From IMG/VR virus record IMGVR_UViG_2609460059_000004: DNA of 8,368 nucleotides. One strand, 5' to 3'. Both the position numbers and the translations under genes were made by a program. The DNA comes from a virus. Its lineage: Duplodnaviria; Heunggongvirae; Uroviricota; Caudoviricetes. This document shows positions 4,860 to 5,120 of the stretch, one piece after another. The number at the start of each line of letters is the position of its first letter. Within the stretch, counting starts at the first letter, position 1. The notes under the pieces are model-generated. The model had not been told where the DNA came from. It saw only the letters and a list, made by a program, of their open reading frames with translations, and did no database searches.

Positions 4860-4888
4860 TTGACGCAAAGTGTTGTTGCGATTGGAAT
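4860..4888 (+). promoter_or_regulatory. candidate promoter for the tRNA pair, with an AT-rich upstream region
   Basis: TTGACG (4860-4865), 17-bp spacer, TGGAAT (4883-4888), preceded by about 120 bp of AT-rich DNA (4740-4860). Confidence 0.3.
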
Positions 4889-4966
4889 ATTAAATCGTAT
4901 CATCGAAAACGGTTCTGAGGGGGAACTCTTCTTTGCTCGGTGATATCGCTCCCCTGAAGAACCAAT

Positions 4967-5042
4967 GCCGACTTAGCTCAGTAGGTAGAGCAACTGACTT
5001 GTAATCAGTAGGTCACCAGTTCGATTCCGGTAGTCGGCACCA
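4967..5042 (+). tRNA. thrU: tRNA-Thr, anticodon UGT, thrU-like, 76 nt with encoded CCA
   Basis: Folded by hand: acceptor GCCGACT/AGTCGGC, D-arm GCTC/GAGC, anticodon stem ACTGA/TCAGT with loop CTTGTAA (anticodon TGT), T-loop TTCGATT, CCA at 5040-5042. One A-C mismatch in the T-stem. Confidence 0.9.
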
Positions 5043-5045
5043 TAT

Positions 5046-5120
5046 GCGGGTATCGTATAATGGCTATTACCTCAGCCTTCCAAGCTGATGATGCGGGTTC
5101 GATTCCCGCTACCCGCTCCA
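5046..5120 (+). tRNA. glyT: tRNA-Gly, anticodon UCC, glyT-like, 75 nt with encoded CCA
   Basis: Acceptor GCGGGTA/TACCCGC, anticodon stem TCAGC/GCTGA with loop CTTCCAA (anticodon TCC), T-arm CGGGT-TCGATTC-CCCGC, CCA end. Only 3 nt after the preceding tRNA. Confidence 0.9.

Follow-up and report, generated by a model that had tools for sequence, protein, structure and literature searches.

A host-derived tRNA-Thr(UGU)/tRNA-Gly(UCC) cassette between the antiterminator and lysis genes of a Rac-like lambdoid prophage

The stretch of DNA analysed here (IMG/VR record IMGVR_UViG_2609460059_000004, Caudoviricetes; 8,368 nucleotides (nt), hereafter referred to as the window) carries a tandem pair of genes for tRNA-Thr(UGU) and tRNA-Gly(UCC) between the Q-type late antiterminator gene and the lysis genes of a lambdoid prophage of Escherichia coli. 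The pair is real, far beyond chance, and it is an element of a known and routinely annotated kind, namely a tRNA cassette of the lambdoid late region whose two genes derive from thrU and glyT of the host. On the whole of the evidence we consider it quite probable that such a host-captured cassette is expressed both from a promoter of its own and by Q-dependent read-through, and that it supplies tRNAs for codons favoured by the prophage.

Both genes were called by ARAGORN, which found exactly two tRNAs within the window, with the anticodons tgt and tcc at position 34, and both score well above the gathering score of 29 of the Rfam tRNA family RF00005. The cassette is laid out as follows:

4967..5042, plus strand: tRNA-Thr(UGU), called by ARAGORN; RF00005 73.8 bits, E-value 3.7e-15; CCA encoded
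5043..5045, plus strand: spacer TAT, 3 nt, between tRNA-Thr and tRNA-Gly
5046..5120, plus strand: tRNA-Gly(UCC), called by ARAGORN; RF00005 65.6 bits, E-value 6.8e-13; CCA encoded

Each gene folds into a full-length cloverleaf with a 7-nt anticodon loop and a 3' CCA. A preliminary description, made by a model from the letters of the sequence, had claimed a tandem tRNA-Thr(UGU)/tRNA-Gly(UCC) pair 3 nt apart between Q and the lysis genes, and on this claim, including the anticodons, ARAGORN and Rfam agree. The interval marked in that description (4860-5120) also covers the promoter and leader of the cassette. A scan of positions 4560-5920 against the Rfam families at a permissive threshold returned nothing credible beyond the two tRNAs, all other matches falling far under their gathering scores.

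The relationship to the host becomes apparent in an alignment of the pair to the thrU-tyrU-glyT-thrT-tufB operon of E. coli K-12. The tRNA-Thr gene is identical to thrU at 76 of 76 positions, while the tRNA-Gly gene matches glyT at 73 of 75, which bears out the earlier impression of thrU- and glyT-like genes with the intervening tyrU missing. The two differences in the Gly gene, C6T and G66A, fall on partner bases of a single pair in the acceptor stem (C6:G66 to U6:A66); the change is thus compensatory and indicates selection for a working acceptor stem. The anticodon stem-loops of the tRNAs in the window, as well as those of the common variants, are the same as in thrU and glyT. The flanks of the cassette, by contrast, are unlike the host operon, save for an AT before each tRNA and a T after thrU, and no homology of the promoter and leader to the host thrU leader extends past 2 nt.

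These flanks also bear on the reading of the pair as an artefact of assembly or as a piece of the chromosomal operon out of its place, to which the preliminary description would have turned had the sequences proved identical to the chromosome. The Thr gene does match the chromosomal copy, and the outer ends of the window are foreign, but the sequences around the tRNAs differ from the chromosomal operon, and sequenced phage genomes contain this junction too. We rejected an artefact, as positions 95-8253 are contiguous in closed genomes, the junction is found in 877 genomes and the foreign ends lie far from the tRNAs; the chance of this reading being correct is negligible.

As to how the two genes came to be juxtaposed, the first letter of the spacer TAT is the base that follows thrU in K-12, and the other two are those that directly precede glyT there. 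Exact deletion of tyrU together with its spacers would leave precisely these letters, although three bases are weak evidence. Positions 3164-3282 of a prophage contig (L110) provide stronger evidence than the TAT: thrU is followed there by the 8-nt spacer of the host, TCAAGTCC, and by 35 nt from the start of tyrU, with 120/120 identity to K-12. The gene order of the contig is DUF1133 Q, DNA methylase, tRNAs, PerC and NanS-like esterase. Judged by its sequence, the stretch with thrU and the start of tyrU is the footprint of a capture from the host tufB operon. No complete phage-borne Thr-Tyr-Gly intermediate was seen in IMG/VR, where thrU followed by the start of tyrU occurs in two contigs only (L109 and L110). 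In L110, the one of the two examined in detail, tyrU ends after its 35 nt with no glyT behind it; in L109, ARAGORN calls the same three tRNAs as in L110, among them neither Tyr nor Gly. The proposed course would therefore start from the thrU-tyrU-glyT-thrT-tufB operon of the host as the source, with a later loss of tyrU and the spacers giving rise to thrU-TAT-glyT. Homologues of thrU and tyrU carried by the Rac prophage of E. coli W have been described in the genome paper of that strain (PMC3032704). A 74-nt stretch 100% identical to thrU is moreover present in the jumbo virulent coliphages Ecwhy_1, BF17, CMSTMSU, fEgEco12 and E9.1, and from these matches it seems that phages of widely different kinds have taken up the same host tRNA.

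The surroundings of the cassette contain the following predicted transcription signals:

4612..4640, plus strand: candidate late promoter, pR'-like, TTGCAA, 17 nt, TTCAAT, starting 8 nt past the Q stop codon; read from the sequence
4699..4728, plus strand: intrinsic terminator, tR'-like, a 7-pair stem AACCCGC/GCGGGTT with a T-rich tail
4876..4903, plus strand: the cassette's own sigma-70-type promoter, TTGCGA, 16 nt, TATCAT; promoter scan, 9/12 matches
5220..5252, plus strand: first terminator-like hairpin and T run, inside a conserved non-coding block; terminator scan
5482..5510, plus strand: strong intrinsic terminator, AACCGCC...GGCGGTT and T8; terminator scan

By analogy with lambda and the Stx phages, we infer that 4612-4728 represents the late promoter and its terminator (pR'/tR'). 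The promoter scan gave no call at 4612-4640, because the -10 element there has no A at position 2. The pR'-like block is kept directly 3' of the Q stop codon in other loci of the same Q family, regardless of the tRNA array, and the tR'-like terminator is kept in relatives with compensating changes in its stem; a transcribed hairpin region lies between the two. In Stx phages, pR' is constitutive and its transcription is terminated in lysogens (PMC7547250). The pR'/tR'-like unit of the window would in the same way yield an RNA of ~80 nt in lysogens, to which the small RNA StxS of the Stx phages is positionally analogous (PMC7547250), a comparison made by position alone.

The cassette promoter is preceded by an AT-rich tract (~4760-4860) and lies ~150 nt beyond the tR'-like terminator. 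Among 30 aligned upstream contexts, the TTG of its -35 and the TA..AT of its -10 element are invariant in otherwise variable surroundings. Arrays that begin with a Met tRNA have an own promoter of the same kind, ~9 nt from their first tRNA, and mapping in the Sakai Stx2a phage has placed, between tR' and stx2AB, a start of transcription that drives the tRNAs (PMC7547250). The expectation that the pair would be expressed from the late promoter or from its own is thus matched on both sides, by a predicted pR'-like promoter with its terminator and by a conserved predicted cassette promoter. Downstream of the pair, the hairpins at 5220-5252 and 5482-5510 would be expected to halt promoter-proximal transcripts ahead of the holin gene. 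A non-coding block at 5121-5300 (including, for instance, GCACTGGCGTATTTTTT, CAGTGCTGATTTTTTAC and AATGGTGCATTATCGGTGG) recurs after tRNA-Gly in many otherwise different contexts and contains short hairpins with seemingly compensating changes; judging from these sequences, it may represent terminators or an unannotated RNA.

Between the predicted transcription start (~4909-4911) and tRNA-Thr lies a further conserved element, which ends 3 nt before the 5' end of the tRNA:

4911..4963, plus strand: leader stem, GGUUCU (4911-4916) pairing with AGAACC (4958-4963) and GGGGG (4919-4923) with CCCCU (4951-4955)

The two helices flank tandem G.A/A.G pairs (4917-18 with 4956-57), and the stem is present in the minimum free energy and the centroid folds alike. 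Over the 30 contexts, 90% of the alignment cells pair, as compared to 30-73% when the register is slid, and six of the 11 pairs are changed on both sides, with one pair being CG in 14, UA in nine and UG in five contexts; the GA dinucleotides show little or no variation. Because the leader is absent where Thr directly follows a tRNA-Arg, the maturation of tRNA-Thr as such does not need it. The scan of 4560-5920 gave no match of the stem to an Rfam family. Three other identities for the leader were considered and rejected: a decayed tRNA, as by eye the lengths do not fit; a lambda boxB/nut site, as CCCTGAAGAA agrees with 10 nt of the nutL boxB while the 3' half of the boxB hairpin is absent; and an rrn boxA, as the boxA-like UGCUC is not conserved in the other contexts.

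The 3-nt spacer had been taken in the preliminary description to imply unusual processing, a view that finds no support in the comparison with other arrays: the host operon itself has spacers of 8 nt (thrU-tyrU) and 6 nt (glyT-thrT), and those of related phage arrays measure 1-4 nt, so that the spacing is ordinary. Following the established steps of tRNA processing in E. coli, the dimeric precursor would mature like those of the host, with RNase P cutting at each 5' end, the cut at the 5' end of tRNA-Gly separating the two tRNAs, and with the UAU trailer left on tRNA-Thr being trimmed by 3' exonucleases to the encoded CCA.

The cassette is widespread in E. coli. With a 56-nt probe across Thr-TAT-Gly at a coverage of at least 80%, the junction was detected in 877 of 5,426 complete E. 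coli genomes (16%), and the wider context 4860-5200 in 174 complete genomes; in IMG/VR, at least 120 contigs carry the junction. Its place is always the slot between Q and the lysis genes. The spacer reads TAT in 147 of the 151 junctions collected, while the sequences on either side fall into many unrelated classes. The slot itself was surveyed in 108 loci, of which 102 had been retrieved with the Q protein of the window and six were others. It contains no tRNA in 58 of these loci, Thr-3-Gly in 26, Met-Arg-Thr-Gly in five, the classic Stx-phage set Met-Arg(UCG)-Arg(UCU) in four and Met-Arg pairs lying 2, 80 or 100 nt apart in seven, the remaining loci holding assorted decayed forms. The tRNA sets are hence interchangeable in this slot among related phages, and the earlier statement that the pair sits where Stx phages hold other tRNAs is correct, Stx and other lambdoid phages carrying Met(CAU)/Arg there. 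The pair also occupies the same slot in sequenced phages with other Q types, namely phi467, JLK-2012, vB_EcoM-606R7, PhiR47_1, vB_EcoS-683R6 and SerU-LTIIb. Among these, phi467 is an Stx2f phage with the pair downstream of stxAB, JLK-2012 has an Asn-Thr-Gly array and SerU-LTIIb is an LT-II phage.

The tRNA bodies are almost invariant across these very different flanks, while the flanks themselves diverge. Sampled copies of tRNA-Thr are mostly identical to thrU (24), the variants being T16C/T20C in the D-loop. For tRNA-Gly, the U6:A66 form of the window is the commonest among the sampled copies (18 exact, 22 with copies having further changes), followed by the glyT-identical form (eight) and a single half-changed C6/A66 intermediate. 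In a few sampled copies, anticodon-stem pairs are broken or the gene is truncated. As judged from these patterns, selection is evident overall and relaxed in some prophages. One decayed copy (contig L043, 4982-5053) derives from glyT and is called Val(UAC) by ARAGORN; its anticodon has changed from TCC to TAC, with A38G and a deletion in the 3' strand of the acceptor stem. In two further contigs (L110, 3086-3161; L232, 3427-3503), the Arg(UCU) position is occupied by a tRNA whose anticodon loop reads CCTTTAA, with C33, and which is predicted as tRNA-Lys(UUU); its body clearly comes from an Arg tRNA, and by its sequence it is either anticodon-switched or decaying.

In E. coli, tRNA-Thr(UGU) and tRNA-Gly(UCC) are made from a single gene each and read ACA/ACG(/ACU) and GGA/GGG, respectively. 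Codon usage was compared between the annotated coding sequences (CDS) of the corresponding prophage in strain APEC O1 (52 CDS, 12,092 codons, GC content 0.484) and 40 core CDS of K-12 (85-135 kb, 15,040 codons, GC content 0.535). Per 1000, ACA is used 14.6 times in the prophage versus 5.5 in the K-12 core (2.7-fold), GGA 15.1 versus 6.9 (2.2-fold), GGG 14.8 versus 9.3 (1.6-fold) and ACG 18.1 versus 12.7. For the difference in share within the codon family, gene-level bootstrapping gives 95% intervals of +0.08 to +0.19 for ACA, +0.07 to +0.16 for GGA and +0.04 to +0.12 for GGG. The extreme case is trkG, just 3' of the lysis genes, with a GC content of 0.379 (full gene, APEC O1) and with 20.7 ACA and 26.9 GGA per 1000. 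This enrichment fits the idea of a supply function but is not specific to it.

The mechanism that we favour would run as follows. In the lysogen, the pair would probably be transcribed from the cassette's own promoter; after induction, transcription would become stronger through Q-modified read-through and amplification of the genes on replicated phage DNA. The products would be the same as, or functionally equivalent to, the host tRNA-Thr(UGU) and tRNA-Gly(UCC), and the extra copies would raise the supply for codons that are used ~2-3 times more in the AT-richer prophage than in core host genes, to the benefit of late-gene translation and of cargo such as trkG. A study of 2015 on Shigella reported extra phage-flanked copies of thrU, glyT and argO and connected them with codon demand (PMC4539685).

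Several points weigh against this account. Transcription of the cassette from either promoter is a prediction from sequence, the proposed origin of TAT by deletion has three nucleotides as its sole basis, and the codon baseline of the host is a single 50-kb region of K-12 rather than the whole genome. The enrichment of ACG is not significant, as the bootstrap interval of its share difference includes zero, so that the earlier proposal of support for the codons of AT-rich cargo genes fits the usage of ACA, GGA and GGG, with trkG especially AT-rich, but not that of ACG. ATA (10.0 versus 2.8 per 1000) and AGA (6.8 versus 1.1) show a stronger enrichment than ACA and GGA, although the prophage has no Ile or Arg tRNA; relatives do carry tRNAs for these codons. 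Many relatives with the same Q family have no tRNA in the slot at all, and the decaying copies (broken stems, truncations, the Gly copy with the anticodon UAC) indicate that any benefit would be dispensable.

Some of these observations are what one would expect of a selectively neutral passenger, that is, a fragment of a host tRNA operon picked up once, spreading along with the mosaic lambdoid late region and merely redundant: the products are identical or near-identical to the host tRNAs, many relatives are without any tRNA in the slot, and decayed copies exist. A passenger of this kind would not readily account for tRNA bodies that stay almost invariant while their flanks diverge, for the compensatory change in tRNA-Gly, for the conservation of the core promoter positions and of the covarying leader stem, or for the presence of the pair in 16% of complete E. 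coli genomes, and we regard it as unlikely.

Phage tRNAs have been reported to rescue cleaved host tRNAs in other systems, and the preliminary description had offered, as an alternative to codon support, a replacement of host tRNAs depleted by a defence nuclease. Under such a counter-defence reading, the phage genes would make up for tRNA-Thr and tRNA-Gly of the host that an anticodon nuclease or another tRNA-targeting toxin destroys during infection. The independent promoter together with late amplification would provide a high dose, and it is the U6:A66 acceptor variant that is commonest among the sampled copies. The Thr gene is however the same as thrU and the Gly anticodon stem-loop the same as in glyT, and neither would resist a nuclease that cleaves the host species; because the anticodon stem-loops are identical, an anticodon nuclease cleaving the host tRNAs would also cleave the phage copies. 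The tRNAs of virulent phages that evade or replenish defence-cleaved tRNAs, such as those of T5 and of mycobacteriophages, resemble the present ones as phage-encoded tRNAs of lytic growth, but differ from those of their host in the anticodon loop or stem, whereas the anticodon arms here are the host's. The slot's other occupants, tRNAs of the Met(CAU) type and Arg UCU/UCG, conform to a rare-codon pattern. We know of no nuclease that targets tRNA-Thr(UGU) and tRNA-Gly(UCC), and none emerged from the present analysis. With matching anticodon arms, the proposed substitution is not upheld, and only a pure dosage or acceptor-variant effect would be conceivable; we consider counter-defence very improbable. 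We would attach just as little credence to its more elaborate form, in which a high thrU/glyT dose from an autonomous promoter, behind the conserved leader stem with its tandem G.A motif, would protect the lysogen, or the phage after induction, from a toxin or defence depleting tRNA-Thr or tRNA-Gly, with U6:A66 or the leader serving for escape or regulation.

As tRNA genes are in general common integration targets, the pair might also be regarded as the remnant of a tRNA-gene attachment site left by the integration of another element. Both genes are, however, complete and lie in the middle of a prophage that itself sits next to ttcA with intR at its end, and neither an integrase nor a direct repeat of a tRNA 3' half is found nearby; such an origin is extremely improbable.

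For the host-captured, codon-supplying cassette that we prefer, the closest known counterpart is the ileZ-argN-argO cluster of Stx lambdoid phages (933W, Sakai Sp5, H-19B). That cluster has the same place on the late strand, following Q/pR'/tR' and preceding the cargo and lysis genes, and it shares with the present pair the tightly packed array with encoded CCA and the reading of codons of low usage in the host and raised usage in the phage. Its independent promoter 3' of tR', which has been mapped in the Sakai Stx2a phage (PMC7547250), has a predicted counterpart here. The cluster differs in encoding Ile and Arg tRNAs, whereas the Thr(UGU) and Gly(UCC) genes of the window have essentially the sequence of their host counterparts. 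Among relatives of this prophage, the slot can be taken by Met(CAU)-Arg-Arg arrays or by a fused Met-Arg-Thr-Gly array; in the Met-first arrays the -10 element lies ~9 nt from the tRNA, in contrast to the structured leader of ~55 nt between promoter and tRNA in the window. With the host thrU-tyrU-glyT-thrT-tufB operon the cassette has in common the order and orientation of thrU and glyT and the adjoining bases, but it is without tyrU, thrT and tufB, has a 3-nt spacer in place of 209 nt, and is unrelated in promoter, leader and downstream sequence.

Going by the published descriptions, the thrU/glyT/argO copies of Shigella (PMC4539685) and the thrX/tyrX genes of the E. coli W Rac prophage (PMC3032704) are apparently the same phenomenon, and both have been read as fitting a supply of tRNAs to laterally acquired genes. 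The intermediate with a tyrU fragment and the invariant TAT junction are not described in either paper, nor are the leader stem and the promoter. A literature search on tRNA-Thr, tRNA-Gly, prophage and antiterminator jointly found no paper, and broader searching gave those on Shigella, E. coli W and the Stx2f phage. The feature is thus real but ordinary, a widespread and already annotated lambdoid prophage tRNA module, and its main value lies in a clean negative. The new detail is modest and consists of the footprint of capture from the tufB operon, the nearly invariant TAT, the conserved cassette promoter and the covarying leader stem before the first tRNA. The U6:A66 variant of tRNA-Gly moreover constitutes a natural tag: because it distinguishes the phage from the host tRNA-Gly, expression of the prophage tRNAs would be easy to test in lysogens and upon induction.

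The wider setting of the cassette is that of a Rac-like lambdoid prophage. Positions 95-8253 match several complete E. coli genomes at 100% identity, with APEC O1 off by ~1 position, and are contiguous in at least eight complete genomes at 99.2-100% identity, APEC O1 among them; strain 042 is 98.9% identical over this range, an insertion/deletion region excepted. In APEC O1, the counterpart of the window is the middle of a full-length prophage integrated beside ttcA, with intR at its end and the order intR, xisR, ralR, recT, recE, kilR, sieB, ydaT, ydaV, followed by trkG, the terminase and the head and tail genes. The gene order in the window is DUF977, QueH, hok/sok, a Doc-family toxin, DUF1367, YbcO, the DUF1133/Q-type antiterminator, the two tRNAs, holin, lysozyme, Rz and trkG. 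The genes that border the tRNA slot are:

4068..4604, plus strand: Q-type late antiterminator gene; Pfam DUF1133 1.4e-102, with a weaker match to Phage_antitermQ (3e-06); RefSeq CDS WP_000640127.1 (042, APEC O1)
5897..7070, plus strand: lysis cassette; Pfam Phage_holin_2_1 and Phage_lysozyme; RefSeq essD, rrrD and lysis protein
5897-6112, plus strand: P21-type holin, part of the lysis cassette
6112-6609, plus strand: lysozyme, part of the lysis cassette
6606-7070, plus strand: Rz/spanin, part of the lysis cassette

The lysis cassette is followed, as in K-12 Rac, by trkG (7208-8253 in the window). No other gene of the prophage is as AT-rich or has as high a content of ACA, GGA and ATA codons. 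In the window, trkG is broken off at 8253 and reads on to a stop at 8275. Positions 1-94 are a 100% match to part of the core gene yqjD and positions 8254-8368 a 100% match to part of a gene for a DMT-family transporter, two loci that lie ~1.3 Mb apart in strain SK1144. Both ends of the window are chimeric, from an assembly join or by construction, and the tRNA region is unaffected.

Further upstream, the window encodes a QueH epoxyqueuosine reductase (702-1388; Pfam 1.9e-65), a tRNA-modification enzyme and as such the second tRNA-related cargo gene of the prophage. It is followed by a hok/sok type I toxin-antitoxin locus (1456-1782), with an Rfam sok match of 119 bits at 1456-1632 and a Hok-family open reading frame at 1645-1782. 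The segment 1873-3181 is present in APEC O1-like prophages and has a shorter replacement in strain 042. Within it lies a gene for a Doc/Fic-family toxin (2180-2674, with a shorter start in RefSeq), and a small open reading frame upstream of this gene, at 1991-2170, could encode its antitoxin.

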